The position numbers were made by a program, and so were the translations under genes. A model generated the notes under the pieces. It had not been told where the DNA came from, made no database searches, and worked only from the letters and a program-made list of their open reading frames with translations. Positions 6,867-24,200 of a stretch of 64,000 bases of DNA are shown here, piece by piece. Positions within the stretch are counted from its first letter, which is position 1; each line of letters begins with the position of its first letter. The DNA is from Gemmatimonadota bacterium (GTDB lineage Bacteria; Gemmatimonadota; Gemmatimonadetes; Gemmatimonadales; GWC2-71-9): positions 32,001 through 96,000 of the forward strand of contig JAZDCY010000011.1 of the NCBI GenBank assembly GCA_036679645.1. Direction: 5' to 3'.

Positions 6867-8114
6867 TCAGGCCGGCACCCTGACCTTGCCGGTCAGGAGC
6901 AGCTCCATGACGCCGCGGCGTTGGCGGTCGAGGACGTCTCTCAGCCTCTCGAGGTACCGGATTTCACGCTCTAAGCAGTCCGCAAAGTCGGCGATCGCGG
7001 CCTGCTCCGCCTTAGGAGGTAATCGAATGTAGATCTTCGAGAGGGCCTGCGGATTCAGTCTCTTGGCTTTCCGGCCGCCTTTCGTGAGTCCGATCTGCCG
7101 AAGGTAGAACCATGGCTGCGTCGCGAGACGGACAAGCCATCCGACATCGACTTCATCAGCAACGTCGAAGGCGGGTAGATCCAGTGTCGTCTCGTAACCG
7201 TCCAGCTCTTCCGGGACGATGCCGCATGCACCATTCAGAAAATCGAGCTTGCTATAAATGAACTGCCCAGCAGATCGACGGTAGTACTTGGTGTTTGCGC
7301 TACCTGGACGCCGGCTAGCGGACGCAACTACGCCCTTGCCGTACAGACGAATGGTAAGCCGTCGCGCATGACGGCCGTCAGACGACGATACGCGGCTCTC
7401 CGTGAGCAGGTCCCCCATTGGATGGGGCACCCATTCTTCCCCGAACTCCTTGAACCGTCGCTTGCCCGTCAGCAGTTGCTGCATGAGGCCGCGCTTGAAC
7501 CGGCGCTTGGCGTCGATTAGGGCCGTGAGCTGTGAATCCAGGAGTTCATGTATTGCTTGGAGCTGGCCGATTCGACGCTGATCGTCTACCGGAGGAACTG
7601 CGACCTTCATGGACGCAAGCCGCCTCCTAGACAACTTCTTCATGCTACCGCTTGTCCCGGCAGCCCGGGCTACTATCTCCCGTCGAGCACGTTCGCCACG
7701 CAGATATGCAGAGAGCCAACGCGGCTCTATCCCTTCGATCACCTCCATGGCCCACATGAGATCGGGGAGGTGGAGGTTTGGATAGTCTCGGTCTACATAT
7801 GCTGTAAGCCCCACGAGGTTTGCGGTGTTCGACCGTGTAATGAGGATCCACCCCGCCTTGATTGGTGGACCGAGTGGTCCACCGCGCTCCGGTCGGACAG
7901 CCTTGTTCTCGAGAGGCCGGAAAGTTCCGTTTGTCACAGCGCTGAGCTTCAGTATTCCATGCTCGCCAACATTCGTAGTACGCTCTTCACATGGAAGACT
8001 TACACCCCCGCGGAACGTTCTGACGAGGTCACCTAGTGTGGAGGTGGTCCATCCCCCGAGCGGTTCCGGGTCCGAGGTTGGTGGGGTGCCGACTAGCGGC
8101 CCGGCGCTAGACAA
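6867..8114 (-). CDS. hsdS: Type I RM specificity subunit S (two TRDs)
   Basis: Two TRDs followed by VPPVDDQRRI and LPPKAEQAAI; KRGLMQQLLTGK and ELLLTGKVRV spacer helices. Confidence 0.93.
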   Translation of the reverse strand: MSSAGPLVGTPPTSDPEPLGGWTTSTLGDLVRTFRGGVSLPCEERTTNVGEHGILKLSAVTNGTFRPLENKAVRPERGGPLGPPIKAGWILITRSNTANLVGLTAYVDRDYPNLHLPDLMWAMEVIEGIEPRWLSAYLRGERARREIVARAAGTSGSMKKLSRRRLASMKVAVPPVDDQRRIGQLQAIHELLDSQLTALIDAKRRFKRGLMQQLLTGKRRFKEFGEEWVPHPMGDLLTESRVSSSDGRHARRLTIRLYGKGVVASASRRPGSANTKYYRRSAGQFIYSKLDFLNGACGIVPEELDGYETTLDLPAFDVADEVDVGWLVRLATQPWFYLRQIGLTKGGRKAKRLNPQALSKIYIRLPPKAEQAAIADFADCLEREIRYLERLRDVLDRQRRGVMELLLTGKVRVPA

Positions 8115-9603
8115 CCCCTAATCCTCTCAAGCGCTGCGCAATCAGGTCGCGGGTCTGTTCAAGCTCGGACTGGATGGACTCGATCTCGGCTTGCACCGCA
8201 GCGAGATCGACCTCCTCTTGCTCCTCGAAGGTGTCCACGTAGCGGGCGACGTTCAGGTTGAACTCGTTCTTCCTGATTTCATCGATCGTCGCCCGGTGGG
8301 CATACTTATCGACCGATTTCCGTGCGCGGAACACGGTCACGATCTTGTCGATATCTTCCGGCCGCAATCGGTTCTGGTTCTTTTCGTCCTCGTACTCCGA
8401 GCTGGCATCGATGAACAACACGTCCGTGTTGTCGCGGCCTTTGCGGAAGATCAGAATAGCGGCCGGGATGCCGGTGCCAAAGAAGAGGTTCGCCGGGAGT
8501 CCAATCACCGCATCCAGCAGGTTCTCGTCGATCAACTTCGTGCGGATCTTCCCCTCGGCGCCCCCGCGGAAGAGCACACCGTGCGGCACGATCACGCCAA
8601 CCCTACCACCGTCTTCCACCGCCGTCTCCACCATGTGGCTGATGAACGCGTAGTCGGCTTTTGATTTAGGGGGCGTGCCGCGATGAAAGCGGTGGAACGG
8701 ATCGCCTGGCGCGTTCTCGGCGCCCCACTTGTCCAATGAGAACGGGGGATTCGCCACGACCACGTCGAACTTCTTCAGCCGGTCACCCTCGACGAGCTTG
8801 GGGCTGTTGAGCGTGTCGCCCCACTCGATCCGCGCGCTATCCACGCCGTGCAGAAACATGTTCATCTTGCACAGCGCCCACGTACCCCCGTTCACCTCTT
8901 GTCCGAAGACGAAGTAATCTTCGCTGCCGACCTCGGCGGCGACCCGGATCAGCAATGAGCCGGAGCCACACGTCGGATCGCAGATCGTCTCGCCCGGCTT
9001 GGGCGCCAGCAGTTTGGCCAACAGAATAGAGACCTCGGCGGGCGTGTAAAACTCGCCGCCTTTCTTGCCGGCGTCGCTGGCAAAATGTCCAATGAGGTAC
9101 TCGTAGGCGTTGCCGATAACATCCAAGTTCCCGATCCGCGATGGCCGCAGATCCAGCACGGGATTGGCAAAGTCGTGGAGCAGGTTCTTGAGACGGCGGT
9201 TCCGGTCCTTGGTCTCGCCCAGGTACGGCTCACTGTTGAAGTCCACGTTCCGGAACACGTTTTCCAGCTTGGTCCGGTTGGCATCCTCGATTCTCTCGAG
9301 CGCAATGTTTATCAACTCGCCGACGTTCGGGGCATCCCGCCGGTCGTAGAGATAGGAGAAGTGCGATTCCTCGGGCACCACGAACCGCTCCCGGCCCAGG
9401 GCACGCTCAACCCGCACCTGGTCACCGCCGTACTTTTTCTCCAGCGCGGCGCGTTTGTCGGTCCACACGTCACTCACGTACTTCACGAACAACATGACCA
9501 GCAGGTAGTCCTTGTATTGCGCCGGGTCGAGCGCACCGCGAAAGGTGTCACAGGCTCGCCAGAGGGTATCGTTGATCTCCTTCTGCGAGATCTTGTCAGT
9601 CAT
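8107..9603 (-). CDS. hsdM: Type I RM methyltransferase subunit M (m6A)
   Basis: GEFYTP, DPTCGSG SAM-binding motif, NPPF catalytic motif; ATG 9603 (MTDKISQ). Confidence 0.96.
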   Translation of the reverse strand: MTDKISQKEINDTLWRACDTFRGALDPAQYKDYLLVMLFVKYVSDVWTDKRAALEKKYGGDQVRVERALGRERFVVPEESHFSYLYDRRDAPNVGELINIALERIEDANRTKLENVFRNVDFNSEPYLGETKDRNRRLKNLLHDFANPVLDLRPSRIGNLDVIGNAYEYLIGHFASDAGKKGGEFYTPAEVSILLAKLLAPKPGETICDPTCGSGSLLIRVAAEVGSEDYFVFGQEVNGGTWALCKMNMFLHGVDSARIEWGDTLNSPKLVEGDRLKKFDVVVANPPFSLDKWGAENAPGDPFHRFHRGTPPKSKADYAFISHMVETAVEDGGRVGVIVPHGVLFRGGAEGKIRTKLIDENLLDAVIGLPANLFFGTGIPAAILIFRKGRDNTDVLFIDASSEYEDEKNQNRLRPEDIDKIVTVFRARKSVDKYAHRATIDEIRKNEFNLNVARYVDTFEEQEEVDLAAVQAEIESIQSELEQTRDLIAQRLRGLGVV

Positions 9604-10228
9604 GGGAGTCCTCCTGCGCATTCAGACGCAGGTTGTCGATGAGCATCTGTCCGATCATCCGGTGGGACGTATCGGTGGCTTGGGCTAGGGCGCTCCTGAG
9701 ATCGCGCTCCCGCGTCAGCAGTTCGGCAAGTTCCGCGATCTCGCGCTGCGTCGCTACCGGCGGTACGACGATCTGCATGTTTTCGAAAACCTTCCGCTGC
9801 ACGATGGGCGTGCCGGCCCCGGTCCGGATCTGTTCGATGATCGCCTGCGCGGGCTTCTGATTCAGGTACCACGCCAGATACCGGCCGTCCAGGCCCTCGC
9901 GCGGGCGCAGGATGTAGAAACTGACGGGCGGCATCGTGCGGTCCGGCACTTCCCGCATCACCCAGGCTCGGTTCTGGATACCCCGGGACATGAACAGCAC
10001 GTCGCCGCCTGCCAGGTGGTACCTGCTCGTGTCCCGGGCACCCGGGTCCATGCGGAGTTCGTGCGCCGGCTCGTACACGTACGGCACGCCGTCTTCCAGG
10101 TGGCGAGAAAGCACGAGCTGGTGGGTCCCATCCGGATCGTGGTCCATCCGGCCGCGAACGGAGAAGCCGGGGAGAACCTCGGCGCAGTCACCGAGTGGCA
10201 TCACGCGGGTTGCCTCGGCTCTCCCCAT
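9596..10228 (-). CDS. Half-size HsdS-like protein (single TRD)
   Basis: GDVLF...YLAWYLNQ...VPPVATQREIAEL matches one HsdS half; overlaps hsdM start. Confidence 0.75.
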   Translation of the reverse strand: MGRAEATRVMPLGDCAEVLPGFSVRGRMDHDPDGTHQLVLSRHLEDGVPYVYEPAHELRMDPGARDTSRYHLAGGDVLFMSRGIQNRAWVMREVPDRTMPPVSFYILRPREGLDGRYLAWYLNQKPAQAIIEQIRTGAGTPIVQRKVFENMQIVVPPVATQREIAELAELLTRERDLRSALAQATDTSHRMIGQMLIDNLRLNAQEDSHD

Positions 10229-10239
10229 TGCTCCTTCCT

Positions 10240-10569
10240 TTACTCGCCGTTACAGGGCGGCTTGTAGTTGTCGATCAGATCCCGCTCGATCGTCAGCCGC
10301 CGCTGCTGGGACGATTCGGTACAGACGCCGAGGTGCGTCTTCCCGTTGCGGTCGAAGCACTGCGCTTTGTGGTGACTGTCGAACCGCTCACTGAGGTTCC
10401 CGGTCTCCCCGATGTAGAGGACATCATAGCGGTCATCCGTACGGAGCTTGAGCACCGCATAGACGCCGCCGATGGGTTTGCACTCCGTCCTCCATGGGTA
10501 GACCGTGAACTCGTACGCGGCGCCCGAGCGCCCCTTCAGGACAACGGTGGTACTGGTACTGGTGGGCAT
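10240..10569 (-). CDS. Small stand-alone GIY-YIG nuclease-family protein
   Basis: GGVYAV...VLYIGETGNLSERF, IERDLI and PPCN motifs; GGAGGG RBS before ATG 10569. Confidence 0.8.
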   Translation of the reverse strand: MPTSTSTTVVLKGRSGAAYEFTVYPWRTECKPIGGVYAVLKLRTDDRYDVLYIGETGNLSERFDSHHKAQCFDRNGKTHLGVCTESSQQRRLTIERDLIDNYKPPCNGE

Positions 10570-10644
10570 ATGGCCCTCCGTCAGGATGTGGGACCGACTG
10601 GACGGCCACCGGCTCGACGCGTAGACTTCTCTTACCATGTGCTC

Positions 10645-10721
10645 GGCCTGGGACGCTTATGTCGACCCTGGTTGAGAGGTGGCGAGAGGCCCGTGCTACT
10701 AACACGGGTCTTCTCATTTTT
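10645..10721 (+). ncRNA. Candidate cis-antisense sRNA (ptaRNA1-like)
   Basis: TACCAT -10-like hexamer at 10633-10638; GGACGCTTATGTC...GGTTGAGAGGTGGC body; terminal hairpin plus T-run; antisense to the GIY-YIG leader. The family resemblance is from memory and was not searched. Confidence 0.5.
10684..10721 (+). terminator. Intrinsic terminator-like hairpin
   Basis: GAGAGGCCCGTG-ctactaa-CACGGGTCTTCTC followed by ATTTTT. Confidence 0.65.
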
Positions 10722-10884
10722 CCAGCAGAATGGCAGTACTCGGCTGGATATGCGTTGAAATGTACCGTTCGCAGGATGTATGTCAAATTTCTGTTGCGGT
10801 ATGGGATTCTGCAAAACAATTTGCAATTGACTTATTGACAAGTATCGGCGACATTATTGACGCACTTTGGTTTCCAGGACCGCC

Positions 10885-12234
10885 ATGTCGCCACCCATCT
10901 CGTTCACTCCAGCTCTCTCGCCCGATCAGATCGCCGAACTGACCCGCCTGCTCGGAGAAATCGACGAGTTCAAGGGCCACTGGCGCAAGCTCGGGGAGAT
11001 CCGAGCCGAACGCCTGGCGTCGCTCAGGCAGGTGACCACCATTGAGTCGGCAGGCAGTTCCACCCGCATCGAGGGCGCCCAGCTCAGCGACGACGAGGTC
11101 AAGCTCGTCCTCCAGGGGCTACGCGTAGACAGTTTCCGCGAGCGCGATGAGGGCGAGGTCCGGGGCTACGGCGAGTTACTCCAGACCATCTTCGACAACT
11201 ACCGCGAGATCCCGGTCACCGAGAACTACATCAAGCAGCTCCATAAGATGCTGCTCGCCCACGTAGAGAAGGACGCCTGGCACCGCGGGGAGTACAAGAA
11301 GCAACCCAACCCGGTGGAGGCTCGTCACCCTGATGGGCGGGTAGAGGTGATCTTTGAGACCGCATCACCGTTCGATACGCCCCGCCTGATGGCGGAACTC
11401 ATCGCGGCAACAACGCAGAGCCTCGACGGCGAGCATATCCATCCACTGGTCACCATTGCCCGCCTCGTCGTCGAGTTCCTCGCCATTCACCCGTTCCAGG
11501 ATGGCAACGGACGGCTATCAAGGGCACTCACCGCGTTGCTGATGCTGCGCGCCGGCTACGAGTACGTCCCGTACGCATCCGTTGAGCGGATCATTGAAGA
11601 CAACAAGACGGAGTACTATCACGCGCTGCGTATGTCGCAGACCGGAATGTCCGACGATCCCTCGGATTTCGGCGACTGGCTGCTGTTTTTTCTCCGGGCA
11701 CTGCAAACACAAAAGCGGATTCTCGCCGGCAAACTCGAGGTCGAACGTTCAATCGTCCGCCTCAATGACATCCAGGTGCGTGCCCTGGAACTGGTCGAGA
11801 AGCATGGGCGCAGCACCAGCACGGACGTAGCCACCGCACTCTCGATCAGCACCCGGTCTGCGCGGTATCACCTCGGCATGCTTCTGGAACGGGGCCTCGT
11901 ACAGGCGCACGGAGAGCGACGCGGACGCTACTACACACGAGGATTGGGCACCAACGAAGGGATGCTCAGGGATCCGCGATCGAAAAACGCGGCCATCCTG
12001 GCAGAAATCCTCGCACGTGGAGGGTCGGTTACACAGAAAGAACTGATCGAACTGGTCGACGCTGAGCGTGCCGACCGCCGGATCGTCGGCTCGCTGCACG
12101 GTCGCCGGCAGGCACACCTGCAACGCGATCACAAGACCGGGAGAAGCAGGCTCACGGCTCGCGGAAGAGAGGTGGCGGAGCAGTACGTCTTTGCCAGACG
12201 ACTTTCCAAGGAGCCGGCCACCGAAACGACGTGA
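10885..12234 (+). CDS. Fic family protein with C-terminal winged-HTH domain(s)
   Basis: HPFQDGNGRLSR Fic motif; N-terminal STRIEG inhibitory motif (class II); wHTH (STDVATALSISTRSARYHLGMLLERGLV...GRYY). Confidence 0.9.
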   Translation: MSPPISFTPALSPDQIAELTRLLGEIDEFKGHWRKLGEIRAERLASLRQVTTIESAGSSTRIEGAQLSDDEVKLVLQGLRVDSFRERDEGEVRGYGELLQTIFDNYREIPVTENYIKQLHKMLLAHVEKDAWHRGEYKKQPNPVEARHPDGRVEVIFETASPFDTPRLMAELIAATTQSLDGEHIHPLVTIARLVVEFLAIHPFQDGNGRLSRALTALLMLRAGYEYVPYASVERIIEDNKTEYYHALRMSQTGMSDDPSDFGDWLLFFLRALQTQKRILAGKLEVERSIVRLNDIQVRALELVEKHGRSTSTDVATALSISTRSARYHLGMLLERGLVQAHGERRGRYYTRGLGTNEGMLRDPRSKNAAILAEILARGGSVTQKELIELVDAERADRRIVGSLHGRRQAHLQRDHKTGRSRLTARGREVAEQYVFARRLSKEPATETT

Positions 12235-13596: not shown

Positions 13597-13677
13597 GTCA
13601 AGCACCCCGCTCCCTCGGTAACGTAGCCGTACAGACACGTTCTGCGAAGCCAGTGCCGCTTCGCGTATATTCCGGAA

Positions 13678-15091
<1,414 letters not shown>

Positions 15092-16337: not shown

Positions 16338-18287
16338 TCAAATGAGTTCTGCGTCCGTCACGATCTCGACGAGTGCCGGCCCGTCGTGCGCCAACGCCTT
16401 CTCGATCGCCTCCCGCACATCGGCTCTCTGCTCGACGCGTTGCCCAAAGGCGCCGCACAGCCGCGCGTAGCGGGCAAAGTTGGGATTGTGCAGCGACGTC
16501 TGCCACACCTCCCATTCGCCCGCACGCTGTTCCTTCGAGATCTTCCCGAGTTCGCTGTTGTTGAGCAGGATGTGCGTGATGTTCATCCCGTACTTCACGG
16601 CGGTGGTCAGTTCGGCCATGTACTGGCCGAACCCACCGTCCCCGGTGACCGCGATGATCGTTCGATCGGGTGCTGCGGCCCACGCGCCCATCGCCGCCGG
16701 GAAGCCGAACCCAATCGACCCCAGATACCCCGACATCAGCACGGATTGGCGCTTGCATTCGAAGTAGCGGCCAAACGAGTACGTGTTGTTGCCCACGTCC
16801 ACCGCAATGACGGCGTCCTCCGGAGCAACGTCTGTCAGTGCGGCAAAGATCGACGCCGAGTTCACGCCGCGGCCACGATCGTCGAGGAGGCGCTTCGCCT
16901 TTTCGGTACGCCAGATCTCCCACCGTTTCGCAACCTCCGGTCGCTGGTCTTGCGTCGCCGGCGTACCCACGGCGTCGAGCATGAGACGAGCCGTGACACC
17001 AATCTCCCCCAGTACGGGAACAGCAACCGGATGGAATTTGCCGTGGGCCATGGGATCGAAATCGACCTGAACTATCGGCTTCTTTGGCGTGATGCCCGTA
17101 TGATTGGAGAACGACGCCCCGAACACGACGAGCACGTCCGACTCGTTCATGAACCAACTCGCGATCGGTGTTCCGCTGCGACCGAGCACACCACATCCCA
17201 GCGGATGCCCGTCGGAGATCAAGCCCTTTCCCTTGAAGGTCGTGAGAACCGGCGCGTTCAGCCGCTCGGCAAGCTCGATGATAGGAGGCATGTTGAAGCG
17301 TGCGCCATGGCCCACGATGAACACTGGGCGCTTGGCGCCCTTGAGGAGGTCGACCGCTTCAGCGAGCGCCGCCTGAGGCGGCGCAATTTCCTGGCTCGGC
17401 ATGCGGCCTCGAGGGGACGATGGCTTCTTGCCTTCAGCCGGGATCGTCTGCACTTCGTTCGGGAAGATCAACGCCGCCACATCACGCTGGAGGGTGGCGT
17501 GTTTCAGCGCGAGCGTCATGAGTTCGGCGTGGCGACTAGTGGGCAGGACCGTCTGCTTCCACGCCGCCACGGCCTCGAATGCCGAATTGAGATCGACCTC
17601 CTGAAAAGCCCCGGGACCGAGTACTTGTGTATCGACCTGGCCCGGCAGCGCGAGGATAGGCGCGCGATCGACCTTTGCGTCCCAGAGGCCCGTGAGCATG
17701 TTCGTCGCGCCCGGGCCGGCAATTGAGAAACATGCGGCGGGCTTGCCCGTCAGCTTTGCATACGCCGACGCGGCAAACGCGGCCGCGCCTTCATGGCGAA
17801 CACCAATGTAGGTGAGTCTGCCCTGTTGCTCTTGCCGGCGGAACGCGTCTGCCAGCCCCAGGTTGGAGTGTCCGACCATACCGAACACGTGGGTGACACC
17901 CCAGTTGACCATCGTCTCTACCATTACGTCGGCGACCGTGCGCACGTGCGGCGGCTCCGGTTCAAGCCCGAGGTAGATGCCGTCGTCCCGTATCTCGACG
18001 GGATACGTCGGAATCCCGTCGCCGAAGCTGCCCGGTGACTTACCTGTGCAGGGATGAAAATCCCACCCGTGCCACGGGCAGCGGAGCCACCCGTTCTCGA
18101 TGGACCCCTCACCCAGTGGCCCACCCTGATGCGGACACCGATTGTCGAGTGCCGCGTACTCGCCCTCGAAGTGCGTCAGAGCGAACTGGCGGTGGGCCGC
18201 CGTCACCGTCATGACGCGCCCCTCCGGAAGCTCCTCGACGTCGGCCACGCGATGCCAGGTCAGTTCACGTGTCTGCGACTCGGCCAT
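16338..18287 (-). CDS. Rieske [2Fe-2S]-fused TPP-dependent enzyme (pyruvate oxidase/acetolactate synthase family)
   Basis: CPHQG...CPWHG Rieske ligands; RHEGAAAF, GPGATN; GDGGF...NN TPP motif. Confidence 0.9.
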   Translation of the reverse strand: MAESQTRELTWHRVADVEELPEGRVMTVTAAHRQFALTHFEGEYAALDNRCPHQGGPLGEGSIENGWLRCPWHGWDFHPCTGKSPGSFGDGIPTYPVEIRDDGIYLGLEPEPPHVRTVADVMVETMVNWGVTHVFGMVGHSNLGLADAFRRQEQQGRLTYIGVRHEGAAAFAASAYAKLTGKPAACFSIAGPGATNMLTGLWDAKVDRAPILALPGQVDTQVLGPGAFQEVDLNSAFEAVAAWKQTVLPTSRHAELMTLALKHATLQRDVAALIFPNEVQTIPAEGKKPSSPRGRMPSQEIAPPQAALAEAVDLLKGAKRPVFIVGHGARFNMPPIIELAERLNAPVLTTFKGKGLISDGHPLGCGVLGRSGTPIASWFMNESDVLVVFGASFSNHTGITPKKPIVQVDFDPMAHGKFHPVAVPVLGEIGVTARLMLDAVGTPATQDQRPEVAKRWEIWRTEKAKRLLDDRGRGVNSASIFAALTDVAPEDAVIAVDVGNNTYSFGRYFECKRQSVLMSGYLGSIGFGFPAAMGAWAAAPDRTIIAVTGDGGFGQYMAELTTAVKYGMNITHILLNNSELGKISKEQRAGEWEVWQTSLHNPNFARYARLCGAFGQRVEQRADVREAIEKALAHDGPALVEIVTDAELI

Positions 18288-18315
18288 GTCTCGCTATCTC
18301 CTCGTCTGCGGTGTT

Positions 18316-19923
18316 TCACTTCTCTCCGACCCCGCCGTAAGACACGCCCGACAGGGAGGCCATGTCGCGATCCCACGTCGTGAGGTCGCCGCGCGAGAAC
18401 TGATTCAGGTGTGAGTGACCGCATGCGCGTGCCAGGATCTTCATCAGGTCCGCGGCCGCGCCCAGAAATCGCGCGAGCCGCTCGGCCGCTGGCTGCGCCG
18501 GGAGGCGTGCCCGGAGATGCGGCTTTTGTGTGGCGATCCCAACGGGGCAGTTGTTGGTGTGACACGCCCGCATGGCGATACAGCCTATCGCCTGCATGGC
18601 CGCGTTGGAGACGGCGATACCGTCGGCCCCAAGCGCTAGCGCCTTGGCAAAATCGGCCGGCGTCCGCAGCCCGCCGGTGATGATCAGCGTGACGTCGCCG
18701 GCCCCACATCCGTCCAGGTGGCGCCGCGCGCGCGCGAGGGCCGGGATCGTCGGCACCGAGATGTTCTCGCGAAAGATCAACGGCGCTGCTCCCGTTCCAC
18801 CGCCCCGCCCATCCAAAATGATGTAATCGACCCCAATCTCCAACGCGGTATCGATATCGCGCTCGATATGCTGTGCCGAGAGCTTGAACCCCACGGGTAT
18901 TCCACCCGTTTGCGCGCGCACCTCCTCCGCAAAGTCACGGTAGTCAGCGGGGTGCGTCCAGTCGGGAAACCGCGCCGGTGACACCGCGGGTTCCCCCTCG
19001 GGGAGGTTCCGGACCTCTGCGATCTTGCCTGTCACCTTTGGACCGGGAAGGTGGCCACCCGTGCCCGTCTTTGCGGCCTGTCCTCCCTTGAAGTGAAAGG
19101 CCTGCACGCGCTTCACCTTGTCCCACGAGAACCCGAAGCGTGCCGACGCCAACTCGTAGAAATACCGGCTGTTTGCCGCCTGCTCTTCGGGCAACATCCC
19201 GCCCTCTCCCGAGGCAATGCCGGTACCCGCCAACTCGGCACCGTGCGCGAGTGCGACCTTGGCCTCTTGCGAAAGAGCGCCAAAGCTCATGTCGGATACG
19301 AAGATCGGTATCTCCAACCGCAACGGCTGTGGCGCCTTGGGACCAATAACTAGATCGGTGCCGACCTCCGTGCCGTCGAGGAGCGGGAGTGTGTGCAATT
19401 GGGCAGTGACGAACTGGATGCCATCCCAACTCGGGAGTTCGCGTTCCGGTACCCCCATCGCGGCAACGGGTCCATGTTCACCACCCAGTCCACGAGACGC
19501 TAGTTGCTGGATGTAGCCGGTATGGGGTTCGTCGGGCGTGCCGTGCGGGTCCTGATATGATCCCTGATAGGCATCCCGGTCATACGGCTGCGGGTATTCC
19601 GTGGCCCACGCCGCGACCTCGTCTTCATCAACCCAAACTGCTTCATCCTCCACCCAGCTCGTGAACTTCTGCAGGCGTTCGGTATTGTTGTACGCACTTA
19701 CACCGGTACTGATTCGGTAGTCCCACTGATGAACACCACAGATAAGGTTCTCACCGCGCACAAACCCGTCGCACAGGAGTGCGCCCCGATGCAGACACCG
19801 GCCGTAGAGCACGGAAACGTCGTCACCCTGTCGGACGACGACGAGATCCACATCCGCAACGAGCGCGTGGGTCGGCACACGTTCCTGCAGCGTGTTCCAG
19901 CCGGCAATCTTGACGCGCTTCAT
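18316..19923 (-). CDS. Rieske-fused FMN-binding glutamate synthase-related protein
   Basis: CLHRG...CGVHQW Rieske; MSFGALS, GEGG, DGRGGGTGAAP; CIAMRACHTNNC [3Fe-4S]; no glutaminase domain. Confidence 0.9.
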   Translation of the reverse strand: MKRVKIAGWNTLQERVPTHALVADVDLVVVRQGDDVSVLYGRCLHRGALLCDGFVRGENLICGVHQWDYRISTGVSAYNNTERLQKFTSWVEDEAVWVDEDEVAAWATEYPQPYDRDAYQGSYQDPHGTPDEPHTGYIQQLASRGLGGEHGPVAAMGVPERELPSWDGIQFVTAQLHTLPLLDGTEVGTDLVIGPKAPQPLRLEIPIFVSDMSFGALSQEAKVALAHGAELAGTGIASGEGGMLPEEQAANSRYFYELASARFGFSWDKVKRVQAFHFKGGQAAKTGTGGHLPGPKVTGKIAEVRNLPEGEPAVSPARFPDWTHPADYRDFAEEVRAQTGGIPVGFKLSAQHIERDIDTALEIGVDYIILDGRGGGTGAAPLIFRENISVPTIPALARARRHLDGCGAGDVTLIITGGLRTPADFAKALALGADGIAVSNAAMQAIGCIAMRACHTNNCPVGIATQKPHLRARLPAQPAAERLARFLGAAADLMKILARACGHSHLNQFSRGDLTTWDRDMASLSGVSYGGVGEK

Positions 19924-21749: not shown

Positions 21750-22961
21750 TCAGTCCAGCGACTCGAGGAACTCCTTCACGACTCGCGTCACGTTGACGGG
21801 TTGCTCCATAGGCGCGAGATGACCGGCGTCCGGCATCACCGAGAACTGCGCATGGGGAATGGCCTCGGCCATCGTCCGAGCCTCTGCTGCCGGCACGATC
21901 TGATCGTCGCTCCCCGCCATCACCAGGGTGGGCACGTCGATCCCGGACAGGGTCGGCGTGGAATCGGGTCGGTCGCGCACCGCGGTAAGCGCGCCGGCCA
22001 CTCCGTCGGCCACCTGATTTGTGATCATGTTGCGCACGTGCTCGACGACGTCCGGCATGGTTTGCCGGGTCGCGGGAGCCAGCAGCTTGGGCAGCATCTC
22101 CGCCGCGAGAAACGTCGGGCCGTCGCGTCGCACCCGTGCAAGGGTCGCGTCACGCTTCGCCCGGCCCTCCGGGTCGTCTGGGGTGGCGCGCGTGTTCATG
22201 AGTATCAAGGCCCGGACGCGATTGCTGTAACGGCGCACCATGTCGAACGCGACATACCCGCCCATCGAAATCCCACACACGACCGCTCGCTCTATATGCA
22301 GCGTGTCCAGCAACGCAATCAGATCGTCCGCGTATACGCCGATCGAGTACCCTTCTTCCGGTACTTCCGTCAGACCGAACCCGCGCAAGTCCACGGCAAT
22401 CCGCCGCCATCCGGTGAGTTTCCCCGACACCTGTCGCCACATCGTCCGGTCGAGTGGGAATCCATGCACGAGAAGCACCGCGACACCATCGCCGGACACA
22501 TCGACAGCCGTGGCGAGTCCGTTGACCGAAAGGTGTTGCGTGACACCCGTCCGCCGGGAAGGCCTGCCGCCAAAGAGTGCGGTGATCTCTTCGGGCACGG
22601 CTCGTGGTTTCCCGTCGCTGTCGACGCAGACGAAGACCAACTCCGCCTCGGCCGCGGGCCGGGAGCCATTCTCCTTGCGAGCCGACTGGCGGAGCGTGAA
22701 ACTAGTCTGCCCCTTCTGAGCCCACTCGATCGAGAAGTGCAGCCGGTCCCCGGGAAACACCTGCTCGTAGTACTCAATGGTCGTCTTTCGCACGACCGGT
22801 TGCACGTGGTTCCGTGCGAACACTTCCATGCCCGGACCTCGGGCAACCGCGTCCCACCGGGCGCGTTCGAAGAGTGCGAGAAAGCTCGCCTGATTCAGGT
22901 GGCCGAAGGCGTCGCAGTCGTCCGGGTAGACCGTAAACGCGGTGGATGGAGTTTCAGTCAC
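21750..22961 (-). CDS. Hotdog acyl-CoA thioesterase fused to an alpha/beta hydrolase
   Basis: DCDAFGHLNQ...ERAR (4HBT/YbgC-like), then HGFP, GISMGG, D...AGH triad. Confidence 0.82.
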   Translation of the reverse strand: MTETPSTAFTVYPDDCDAFGHLNQASFLALFERARWDAVARGPGMEVFARNHVQPVVRKTTIEYYEQVFPGDRLHFSIEWAQKGQTSFTLRQSARKENGSRPAAEAELVFVCVDSDGKPRAVPEEITALFGGRPSRRTGVTQHLSVNGLATAVDVSGDGVAVLLVHGFPLDRTMWRQVSGKLTGWRRIAVDLRGFGLTEVPEEGYSIGVYADDLIALLDTLHIERAVVCGISMGGYVAFDMVRRYSNRVRALILMNTRATPDDPEGRAKRDATLARVRRDGPTFLAAEMLPKLLAPATRQTMPDVVEHVRNMITNQVADGVAGALTAVRDRPDSTPTLSGIDVPTLVMAGSDDQIVPAAEARTMAEAIPHAQFSVMPDAGHLAPMEQPVNVTRVVKEFLESLD

Positions 22962-23024
22962 GGCATGAAAGGTAGCCGACGGTCGTCGTCCCGTCTCCCT
23001 TGGCAGACCGGGGGACATCTGGCG

Positions 23025-24200
23025 ATGATTCCGGCCAGCATGCCCACTCGATCTTCGTCCGCCGACCACCCGGCCATCGTCACGGACAGGGACGCCCTCG
23101 TGGCCCTGGTGAACCGGCTCAAACGCAAGCAGCGCATAGCCTTAGATACCGAGGCCGCGTCGTTTCACCGCTACGTTGACCGGGTCTATCTGGTGCAGGT
23201 CAGCTCGGATGACGAGACCGCGCTCATCGATCCCCTCGCGTTCGACGACCTGAGTCCGCTTGGGGATCTCCTGGCCGATCCCAAACTGGAGACGATCTTC
23301 CACGATGCGGACTACGACCTGCGGATCCTGCATCGCGACTACGGGTTCAGTGCCCGGCGCGTGTGGGACACGCGTATCGCGGCCCAGTTCGTGGACGAGC
23401 CGGGTGTCGGCTTGGGACCGTTGCTCGAGCGTCACTTCGGCATCACGCTGAGCAAGAAGCTGCAGCGTGCGGACTGGTCCCGCCGGCCACTGACACCGGC
23501 GATGATCGCGTACGCAGCCGCCGACACCGCTCACCTCCCGGCGTTGCGTGATCATCTGGAGCGCGAGCTGCGCACGCGGAAGCGACTGCCTTGGGCGGAA
23601 GAGGAGTTTGGGCGGCTCGAAGCGGTCCAGTGGACCCCACCATCCGAAACTCAGCAGTTTCTCCGGATCAAAGGAGCAAAGGCGCTCCCGGGGCATCAAC
23701 TGGCGATAGTGCGATCGATCTGGGAATGGCGAGAGCGCACAGCCGCCGCGATGGACCGAGCGCCGTTCCGCATCCTGGCAAATCAGTTGATCGTGGCGAC
23801 TGCGCGTACGGCCCCGACCAAACCCGGTGCGCTACGTCGCGTGGACGGGTTTCCCGAGAGTGTGGCCAAGCGCCACGGACGCGAAATCGTGGAGGCGGTG
23901 CTGGAGGGGAAGGCGACCCCGGAAAAAGACTGGCCTCGTGTGGAGCGGCGGCGTCGGGCAAAACCCGATCCCGCCGCCGACCGGCGATACCAGCGACTGC
24001 GGGAACTCCGCGCTATGAGGTCAGGCGAGACGGGACTGGAACCCGGCCTCATGTGCCCCAACGGAACGCTGCTGGCGATCGCGCGCGTCGGCCCCACCGG
24101 CGCAGCCGATCTCGACGGCATCAGCGAACTCCGCCGTTGGCAACGGGAGGTGCTCACGGACGCCGCGATCCTCCAGGCGGCGGGAGACGGGAAGGACTAG
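23025..24200 (+). CDS. rnd: Ribonuclease D (with HRDC domains)
   Basis: ALDTE, HDADYD, ADWSRRPL, YAAAD DEDDy motifs. The upstream part of the 799-aa ORF is an antisense shadow. Start is 23025 or 23040. Confidence 0.9.
   Translation: MIPASMPTRSSSADHPAIVTDRDALVALVNRLKRKQRIALDTEAASFHRYVDRVYLVQVSSDDETALIDPLAFDDLSPLGDLLADPKLETIFHDADYDLRILHRDYGFSARRVWDTRIAAQFVDEPGVGLGPLLERHFGITLSKKLQRADWSRRPLTPAMIAYAAADTAHLPALRDHLERELRTRKRLPWAEEEFGRLEAVQWTPPSETQQFLRIKGAKALPGHQLAIVRSIWEWRERTAAAMDRAPFRILANQLIVATARTAPTKPGALRRVDGFPESVAKRHGREIVEAVLEGKATPEKDWPRVERRRRAKPDPAADRRYQRLRELRAMRSGETGLEPGLMCPNGTLLAIARVGPTGAADLDGISELRRWQREVLTDAAILQAAGDGKD

Follow-up and report, generated by a model that had tools for sequence, protein, structure and literature searches.

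Two adjacent genes for Rieske-headed flavoenzymes are the subject of this report. They lie in a stretch of 64,000 nucleotides (the window) from a Gemmatimonadota bacterium (GenBank assembly GCA_036679645.1, contig JAZDCY010000011.1, positions 32,001 to 96,000), co-oriented on the minus strand with 28 bp between them. In enzyme 1, the product of gene 1, a Rieske [2Fe-2S] domain precedes the flavin mononucleotide (FMN)/[3Fe-4S] domain of glutamate synthase; in enzyme 2, the product of gene 2, a Rieske domain precedes a thiamine diphosphate (ThDP)/flavin adenine dinucleotide (FAD) body of the pyruvate-oxidase branch. The features are as follows, in window coordinates:

18316..19923, minus strand: gene 1, Rieske-headed FMN/[3Fe-4S] glutamate-synthase-domain enzyme, 535 amino acids, intact open reading frame
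19672..19908, minus strand: Rieske [2Fe-2S] domain of gene 1, residues 6-84, ligands C43, H45, C62 and H65 (Pfam E 1e-10)
18418..19329, minus strand: FMN barrel (Glu_synthase) of gene 1, residues 199-502 (Pfam E 3e-86)
18547..18582, minus strand: [3Fe-4S] motif CX5CX4C of gene 1, residues 448-459 (C448, C454 and C459)
18288..18315, minus strand: spacer between genes 1 and 2, 28 bp, with a GAGGAG ribosome-binding-like site ahead of the gene 2 start
16338..18287, minus strand: gene 2, Rieske-headed ThDP/FAD enzyme of the pyruvate-oxidase branch, 649 amino acids, intact open reading frame
18039..18260, minus strand: Rieske [2Fe-2S] domain of gene 2, residues 10-83, ligands C51, H53, C70 and H73 (Pfam E 6e-18)
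16362..17939, minus strand: ThDP body of gene 2, residues 117-642, with E166, the GDG...N motif at 549-577 and the TPP N, M and C domains

A preliminary description made from the letters of the window had recognized two adjacent, co-oriented Rieske fusions, one with an FMN/[3Fe-4S] domain lacking a glutaminase and the other with a ThDP body of the pyruvate-oxidase type, and the open reading frames, Pfam domains and structural models all agree with it. The AlphaFold2 models of enzymes 1 and 2 have predicted local distance difference test values of 86.8 and 92.7, with folds matching glutamate synthase and pyruvate oxidase (POX)/acetohydroxyacid synthase (AHAS), respectively. Both Rieske domains are of the dioxygenase-ferredoxin type, having CxH...CxxH ligands without the bc1 disulfide; they are only 25% identical to each other, and the four ligands are retained in 110-112 of 113-115 relatives of the two enzymes. 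In gene 1, the Pfam scan detected Rieske, Glu_synthase and FMN_dh only, with neither an amidotransferase nor a GXGXG domain. Its CX5CX4C motif is kept in 112 of the 112 aligned rows having residues there. K285, R305 and T377 align with K937, R957 and T1030 of Azospirillum brasilense GltB, residues which we take to bind 2-oxoglutarate (a citable source for this role was sought and not found), and are invariant among relatives. The position of GltB E978, a loop residue that presumably signals to the glutaminase site, corresponds to residue 326 of gene 1 and is variable (S, A, D or E across 113 relatives). A single in-frame stop occurs within the gene 1 match in three genomes (G083, G149 and G316).

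The Rieske domain of gene 2 has naphthalene dioxygenase ferredoxin as its best solved match, the dioxygenase ferredoxins 2QPZ and 5BOK being closest. The rest of the chain carries the features of pyruvate oxidases, that is, the PYR, FAD and PP domains, the catalytic Glu and the GDG...N motif, and binding of FAD is predicted. It scores higher with PoxB (252 bits) than with acetolactate synthase (205 bits), and Foldseek ranked AHAS and POX about equally for the model. It stays below all the curated cut-offs, the top NCBIfam model being pyruvate oxidase PRK08611, with 400 bits where 742 are required, and SpxB (296/638), PRK09124 (311/792) and acetolactate synthase TIGR00118 (309/538) behind. The chain stops at about residue 532 of Escherichia coli PoxB, and the lipid helix of PoxB (558-568) is missing. 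Phe465 of PoxB is described in the available text of PMC7245740 as assisting ThDP-to-FAD transfer; this position is occupied by K582 in 115 of 115 gene 2 relatives, and H140, S141, H396, Y521, K582 and K585 form a fixed family signature. As predicted from these residues, the active site of enzyme 2 is a distinct, cationic one, and the invariant His and two Lys point to a substrate more anionic than pyruvate. A His at the H140 position is also found in a protein of locus L252 that we take to be IolD-like.

Do the two genes belong together? Two sets of Rieske-type loci were collected, 80 found with gene 1 and 80 with gene 2, with two contigs common to both, and flanks of up to 6 kb were fetched around each gene 1 locus. 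In the gene 1 set, gene 2 lies in the flanks at 38 of 80 loci and elsewhere in 12 of the other 42 genomes (50/80 in total). An FMN-domain gene is present at 33/80 loci of the gene 2 set, including the YerD-like L110, which was excluded, and a gene 1 orthologue is found elsewhere in 23 of the other 47 genomes (two are cut by contig ends and one is CDGSH-headed), making 55/80. Gene 1 comes first in 59 of 71 loci and gene 2 in 8, while three have the genes on opposite strands and one is cut; this count includes L110 and two duplicate contigs. Among 251 genomes of the window's phylum, 250 of them at least 90% complete, gene 1 occurs in 24, gene 2 in 17 and both in 15. Kin in these counts are not independent, and many of the genomes are drafts. 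The linkage holds over about ten phyla and through swaps of the N-terminal carrier described below. Pattern scans estimate the two families at about 5200 and 2000 stored genome stretches, respectively.

Genes 1 and 2 are thus functionally linked, far above chance, and their pairing is not obligate. The two-component module of the preliminary description stands as to the linkage and the retained catalytic and cofactor motifs but not as an invariable partnership, and the co-occurrence check that it had suggested gives an asymmetric answer: the FMN gene is present in 15 of the 17 genomes with the ThDP gene, whereas the ThDP gene is present in only 15 of the 24 with the FMN gene, so that gene 1 is alone in 9/24 and gene 2 in 2/17. 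Complete chromosomes with a single gene occur on both sides (G019, G016 and G024; G051 and G055). The heavier leaning of enzyme 2 on enzyme 1 would fit either enzyme 1 making the substrate of enzyme 2 or enzyme 1 serving as its electron sink. A complex prediction with enzyme 1 and residues 1-460 of enzyme 2 scored 0.00, which speaks neither for nor against binding. One apparent natural fusion, P0241 (1195 amino acids with both domain sets), was the sole such match among 7993 long candidates scored; it was rejected as a Rosetta stone, being a frameshift read-through in which the FMN frame breaks off near residue 396 and the [3Fe-4S] motif is missing.

It might be argued that the two are merely co-regulated and otherwise act alone in the ordinary way, one as a pyruvate oxidase or acetolactate synthase and the other as a minor glutamate synthase. 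Each gene is indeed found without the other, order and spacing vary, and the members are often far apart or on different contigs. However, neither enzyme passes any curated family cut-off, the linkage is kept over about ten phyla and through carrier swaps, and both enzymes have carrier fusions that are missing from ordinary enzymes, and we regard this explanation as very improbable.

The N-terminal carrier is swappable in both enzyme families, in which Rieske, CDGSH, rubredoxin, rubredoxin plus Rieske and no carrier all occur; within one clade, the FMN enzyme has a Rieske, CDGSH or rubredoxin carrier or none. In a tree of FMN bodies (38 rows, LG+G4, with a long outgroup branch and with archaeal split/ferredoxin-type glutamate synthases left aside), the Rieske, CDGSH and rubredoxin forms make one group (95/91), to which MgsC-like proteins are the sister group (100/95), with YerD-like proteins and GltB placed separately; the label MgsC-like rests on neighbours, namely amidotransferase, GXGXG-type, glutamine-synthetase-like and sarcosine oxidase genes. 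CDGSH was seen in a relative (L115), and a CDGSH-headed query found 80 loci, 2 of which have gene 2; pirin-like (16/80) and glutathione-transferase-like (11/80) genes, recognized by motif only, are among the neighbours. Two complete Pelagibacter genomes (L222 and L226) encode a CDGSH-headed FMN enzyme. Unusual heads of the FMN enzyme have five rubredoxin repeats, or Fer4_19, two CDGSH and a rubredoxin (L311:3320-5521 and L327:5047-7224). Five Planctomycete operons (L155, L283, L286, L294 and L329) begin with a fusion of rubredoxin, membrane part and cytochrome c, after which come a ThDP enzyme with a Rieske head and an FMN enzyme without any head. In four of these operons, a short hydrophobic stretch is present at the N-terminus of both enzymes, and a di-haem peroxidase gene is next in L283.

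A headless query found 68 loci, one of them its own, mostly in anaerobes and methanogens. In this sister clade, 34 of 38 proteins scanned, out of 65, have a rubredoxin head, and a rubrerythrin gene is found in 31/65 loci, mostly within a few hundred bases, with one match weak. Genes for Fur/PerR-type, peroxiredoxin, flavodoxin and di-haem peroxidase proteins also occur there. The same ThDP enzyme is encoded in 7/67 loci, where it is 64-67% identical, with the same signature, and is headed by Rieske, by rubredoxin plus Rieske or by nothing. Locus L302 has the order rubrerythrin, headless ThDP enzyme, rubredoxin-FMN enzyme, rubredoxin and peroxiredoxin. In two methanogen loci (L345:7368-9056 and L315:6825-8647), parts of which are broken into several frames, a rubredoxin FMN enzyme lies beside a rubredoxin-headed ThDP enzyme that has no His/Lys signature (42% identical).

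A protein of this kind has been studied in Clostridium difficile. According to the available parts of PMC11980386, CD0828 (CD630_08280) has 480 amino acids, a rubredoxin with a 21-residue spacing and CX5CX4C at 398-409, is encoded by the last gene of the rbr-perR-sor operon, and is induced by H2O2 and air. Its deletion lowers survival of H2O2 by 3-5 log, as does deletion of rubrerythrin. The purified protein has 1.2 Fe per monomer and needs addition of FMN; it is slowly reduced by NADH and slowly transfers electrons to rubrerythrin. A preprint (10.1101/2024.09.17.613384) describes modest synergy of CD0828 and rubrerythrin in assays with NADH and raises glutamate oxidation as a speculation; those passages of the two sources in which glutamate is mentioned give no assay of it as a donor. 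In the sister clade described here, 36 of 59 proteins have the 21-residue rubredoxin spacing and in 53 of 59 CX5CX4C starts 83 residues from the end, as in CD0828.

Rieske forms have other companions. A membrane protein resembling MsrQ and extended by a Rieske domain at its C-terminus, recognized by a Ferric_reduct domain and a weak MsrQ match, is encoded in 40 of the 160 loci (e.g., L008:3227-5045), and in 35 of these 40 it is followed by a Cys/His partner of about 255 amino acids with the motif D.KC...H..CA..C and no Pfam family. DUF5996 (34), an NhaP-type exchanger (33) and a flavodoxin (9) also recur in the 160 loci. The MsrQ-Rieske module is present in 6 of the 15 pair-bearing genomes of the phylum. 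It was rejected as an obligatory acceptor, as it is separable and absent from the other 9 as well as from the host genome.

In which direction do the electrons flow? Amination of 2-oxoglutarate to glutamate has a potential of about -0.13 V at 1 M NH4+, lower at mM. Rubredoxins lie at -66 to +16 mV and NEET/CDGSH proteins at +24 to +60 mV, as compared with -405 mV for a plant-type ferredoxin (PMC12019745, Table 1, from the part of that source available). Rubredoxin and CDGSH are therefore too oxidising to feed the amination of 2-oxoglutarate, and they are able to accept electrons from its reverse; provided that the chemistry is the same throughout the clade, enzyme 1 would oxidise an amine, most likely glutamate, and export the electrons. 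The presence of relatives in anaerobes beside peroxide-removal genes likewise suggests an outward flow. Enzyme 2, which has no quinone-facing tail, likely exports electrons from a 2-oxo acid as well. We therefore favour, at roughly even odds (about 0.5), a reading in which the two are a co-inherited pair of soluble flavoenzymes, each likely oxidising its substrate and passing single electrons through the Rieske domain as the likely exit to an acceptor outside the pair.

Enzyme 1 would run the glutamate-synthase half-reaction backwards, from L-glutamate to 2-oxoglutarate and NH4+, with electrons passing from FMN via [3Fe-4S] to Rieske. Enzyme 2 would oxidatively decarboxylate a 2-oxo acid to the acid and CO2, with electrons passing from ThDP via FAD to Rieske, and its Rieske domain would substitute for the quinone-facing C-terminal anchor of PoxB. 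2-Oxoglutarate is a candidate substrate of enzyme 2, which would make a two-step route from glutamate to succinate. The acceptor would probably be rubrerythrin in anaerobes and, in many aerobes, the Rieske-bearing cytochrome b of the MsrQ-like type; the purpose might be an electron supply for redox-stress defence or repair that is independent of NAD(P)H.

The preliminary description had instead proposed a closed circuit, in which the oxidation of a 2-oxo acid such as pyruvate by enzyme 2 supplies electrons, via the Rieske centres, to enzyme 1 for amination of 2-oxoglutarate with free ammonia, or the reverse. Ammonia-dependent amination is a known side activity of glutamate synthase (PMC6237917), enzyme 2 is seldom without enzyme 1 (15/17), and in some operons (L302 and L283) only one of the enzymes has a carrier. 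The host genome would also suit it, having no obvious acceptor and, as far as the assembly goes (0 GXGXG matches in a genome 92.7% complete), no canonical GltB. On the other hand, rubredoxin and CDGSH are too oxidising for amination, full-length GltB is also present in many enzyme 1 genomes, enzyme 1 is alone in 9 of 24 genomes and enzyme 2 accompanies only 2 of the 80 CDGSH-query loci. The carrier types of the partners need not match, and an amidotransferase or glutaminase is found only once, not recurrently, among 126 scanned neighbours of Rieske forms. A closed circuit is thus unlikely. A coupling dependent on two Rieske centres is not supported, given that the pairing persists with CDGSH, rubredoxin or no carrier on the FMN enzyme, or with a headless ThDP enzyme, nor is reductive amination supported as the likelier direction, given the high potentials of the interchangeable carriers and the occurrence of the rubredoxin form with rubrerythrin. 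The words "or the reverse" come closer, in that glutamate oxidation is near the reading favoured here, but in that reading electrons leave both enzymes rather than cycling between them.

Several points weigh against electron export from glutamate. The K/R/T positions of enzyme 1 are also conserved in YerD-like and MgsC-like proteins and thus are neither proof of glutamate nor diagnostic of it. The identity of gene 1 to the rubredoxin clade, 44-49%, is hardly above that to MgsC-like proteins, 42-48%, and CD0828 is placed with the sister clade by a fingerprint. Dioxygenase-type Rieske ferredoxins have potentials of about -150 mV, lower than rubredoxin. Rubrerythrin is found in 0 of the 160 Rieske-type loci, 0 of the 80 CDGSH-query loci and not in the host genome, and no recurring stress gene is among the 126 scanned neighbours; for these reasons, together with the potential of Rieske ferredoxins, the argument for export is weaker in the Rieske form. 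The MsrQ-Rieske fusion is absent from 9 of the 15 pair-bearing genomes of the phylum and was not found in the host genome, while 20 of the 31 genomes with the fusion hold neither enzyme. The host genome already has three full-length genes for Glu/Leu/Phe/Val dehydrogenases. Lotoux et al., in the text available of PMC11980386, deem CD0828 unlikely to be a donor to rubrerythrin, from work with NADH as the source and a protein of 1.2 Fe per monomer, and leave its role open.

Enzyme 1 might alternatively be an electron sink: its carrier and FMN would be reduced by enzyme 2 or NADH and would in turn pass the electrons to O2, H2O2, a quinone or some other electrophile, with no glutamate involved. 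A flavodoxin-fold FMN protein can in fact replace enzyme 1: the flavodoxin is never in the same locus as gene 1 and takes its place in Flavobacteriaceae loci (L089 vs L091 and L087 vs L125). It matches RosB (5MJI) at E 4e-39, with the last ~50 residues of RosB unmatched, and a RosB-like flavodoxin is found in 14 of 25 gene 2 genomes without gene 1 vs 5 of 55 with it. This replacement also speaks for the favoured reading, since RosB uses glutamate as the amino donor and releases 2-oxoglutarate, whereas, as a point against glutamate here, RosB-like proteins of <40% identity are not roseoflavin enzymes and have no specialised RosB C-terminus (PMC11039241, from the portions available). A sink would also suit the pirin-like and glutathione-transferase-like genes beside CDGSH forms, as well as the reduction of CD0828 by NADH and its small H2O2-dependent NADH consumption. 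Yet the NADH activity of CD0828 is slow, and the 2-oxoglutarate-binding positions are invariant. The FMN of GltB lies at about -200 mV, and electron flow from a carrier near 0 mV to such an FMN would be uphill. We hold a sink to be as unlikely as the closed circuit.

A further alternative is catabolism of an amine other than glutamate, such as an N-substituted glutamate, a sulfonate or another marine solute, which enzyme 1 would deaminate and whose carbonyl product enzyme 2 would cleave or oxidise. This would agree with MgsC-like proteins being the closest characterised catalytic relatives, with the unusual invariant site of enzyme 2 (H140, K582 and K585), with recurrence of NhaP-type and DUF5996 genes (33 and 34 of 160) and with five Poribacteria loci in which gene 2 comes after genes for a class III aminotransferase and a PALP enzyme. 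These five are close kin, however, and four of their genomes hold enzyme 1 elsewhere; near the pair there is no recurring substrate transporter or other catabolic enzyme, and the context in anaerobes is peroxide defence. Such a pathway seems a little less probable still than a sink or a closed circuit.

Taken to its full extent, electron export by the pair would amount to an undescribed, NAD(P)H-independent supply, in which an FMN glutamate dehydrogenase and a ThDP/FAD 2-oxoglutarate dehydrogenase convert glutamate to succinate and send four electrons through rubredoxin, Rieske or CDGSH plugs to peroxide-removing or repair enzymes; we put this forward tentatively, as a doubtful but specific proposal. 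The pair is widespread and its architecture is common in databases, where the FMN family goes under the name of glutamate synthase and the ThDP family under that of acetolactate synthase or pyruvate oxidase. These names are probably wrong and distort metabolic models of marine and sediment bacteria. If the proposal is true, it names the missing electron source of CD0828-type proteins and gives a function to type 5 CISD proteins, and a ThDP/FAD enzyme unloading onto its own Fe-S domain would represent a third type of acceptor beside O2 and quinone.

The surroundings of the pair have little part in this argument. The GC and GC3 contents of both genes resemble those of neighbouring genes, and promoter and terminator scans gave chance-level results only. 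The names given by the ESM Atlas were all automatic ones. Other features of the window are as follows:

13672-13772, plus strand: TPP riboswitch preceding thiC, on the strand opposite to the gene pair
21750-23069, minus strand: fusion of a thioesterase with a 3-oxoadipate enol-lactonase-type alpha/beta hydrolase
6867-12234: type I restriction-modification genes, a small GIY-YIG-like open reading frame and a Fic-domain gene, by motif recognition only

The genes of the window for a deaminase, an O6-alkylguanine-binding protein, PepE, tryptophanase, ThiC and DinB are found in 0 of the 160 related loci and a cyclophilin once, at 33%. The neighbours were rejected as pathway members, as none travels with the pair across the 160 loci; thus a part for the deaminase and tryptophanase, which the preliminary description had itself called only circumstantial, is not supported, and thiC, with its own TPP riboswitch on the other strand, was likewise set aside. 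The sole genome of the same genus retains the cyclophilin-deaminase pair, and neither enzyme was found there. The host genome encodes a membrane-anchored YerD-like FMN protein (contig C75) and, as possible acceptors, all unlinked, a canonical MsrPQ (MsrQ), a further membrane protein of the ferric-reductase type and a single free Rieske ferredoxin; a tblastn search of it gave no match for an acetolactate-synthase-like gene. A molybdoenzyme most like 4-hydroxybenzoyl-CoA reductase, below the cut-off, adjoins gene 1, gene 2 or both at seven loci from two Gemmatimonadota families (L264-L266, L269, L277, L279 and L002) and is unlinked in the host genome (G000, contig C5).

How does the pair compare with known systems? 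Literature searches found no publication on either Rieske-headed form, with most subscription journals outside their coverage, which agrees with the preliminary description in that it knew of no biochemical characterisation. The best sequence matches of enzyme 2 are pyruvate oxidases (252 and 212 bits; PoxB 3EY9/3EYA, Lactobacillus plantarum POX 1POX and Corynebacterium glutamicum PQO 9EV3-6), with which it shares the three-domain ThDP/FAD fold, the catalytic Glu and the S28/S36 position. Unlike them, it has an N-terminal Rieske domain and no 558-568 helix, F465 is replaced by Lys and D27 by His, and the His of the L. plantarum GPGGTH motif is replaced by Asn. The recurring membrane protein differs from MsrQ in having a C-terminal Rieske domain and a Cys/His partner in place of MsrP.

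Enzyme 1 resembles GltB and ferredoxin-dependent glutamate synthase (1EA0, 2VDC, 1LLW and 7MFM) in the FMN barrel, the [3Fe-4S] motif and the K937/R957/T1030 positions. It differs in having one third of the length of GltB (~1500 amino acids), only 33% identity and no glutaminase, central or GXGXG domain, with E978 not kept, and it reaches 123.5 bits against a curated GltB cut-off of 1047. MgsC (GlxD), a subunit of N-methylglutamate synthase, is likewise a stand-alone FMN domain, which is 42-48% identical and sister to the clade in the tree. Unlike MgsC-like genes, which are accompanied by those for amidotransferase and GXGXG-type subunits, gene 1 has no mgsA or mgsB in the window and has a carrier of its own. 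Type 5 CISD proteins, in which tandem CDGSH domains are joined to a glutamate synthase FMN domain, are known from sequence only according to the available text of PMC3174974 and PMC5859297. Their FMN body is 67-72% identical to that of gene 1, forming one branch inside or beside the Rieske forms, while gene 1 has Rieske in place of CDGSH and the CISD forms are rarely beside a ThDP enzyme (2/80 loci).

CD0828 is like enzyme 1 in that a small carrier is fused N-terminally to a stand-alone FMN/[3Fe-4S] domain, and like the sister clade of enzyme 1 in its rubredoxin spacing, motif position and rubrerythrin neighbour. Unlike CD0828, gene 1 has Rieske rather than rubredoxin and a ThDP enzyme as its partner, and its genome has no rubrerythrin. 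The link ties the pair to a published open question, the electron donor of CD0828, as far as the available text of PMC11980386 goes. The cores of both enzymes belong to known kinds, and one relative with a rubredoxin head has already been studied; what is new is the link of the FMN enzyme clade to rubredoxin, rubrerythrin and CD0828.

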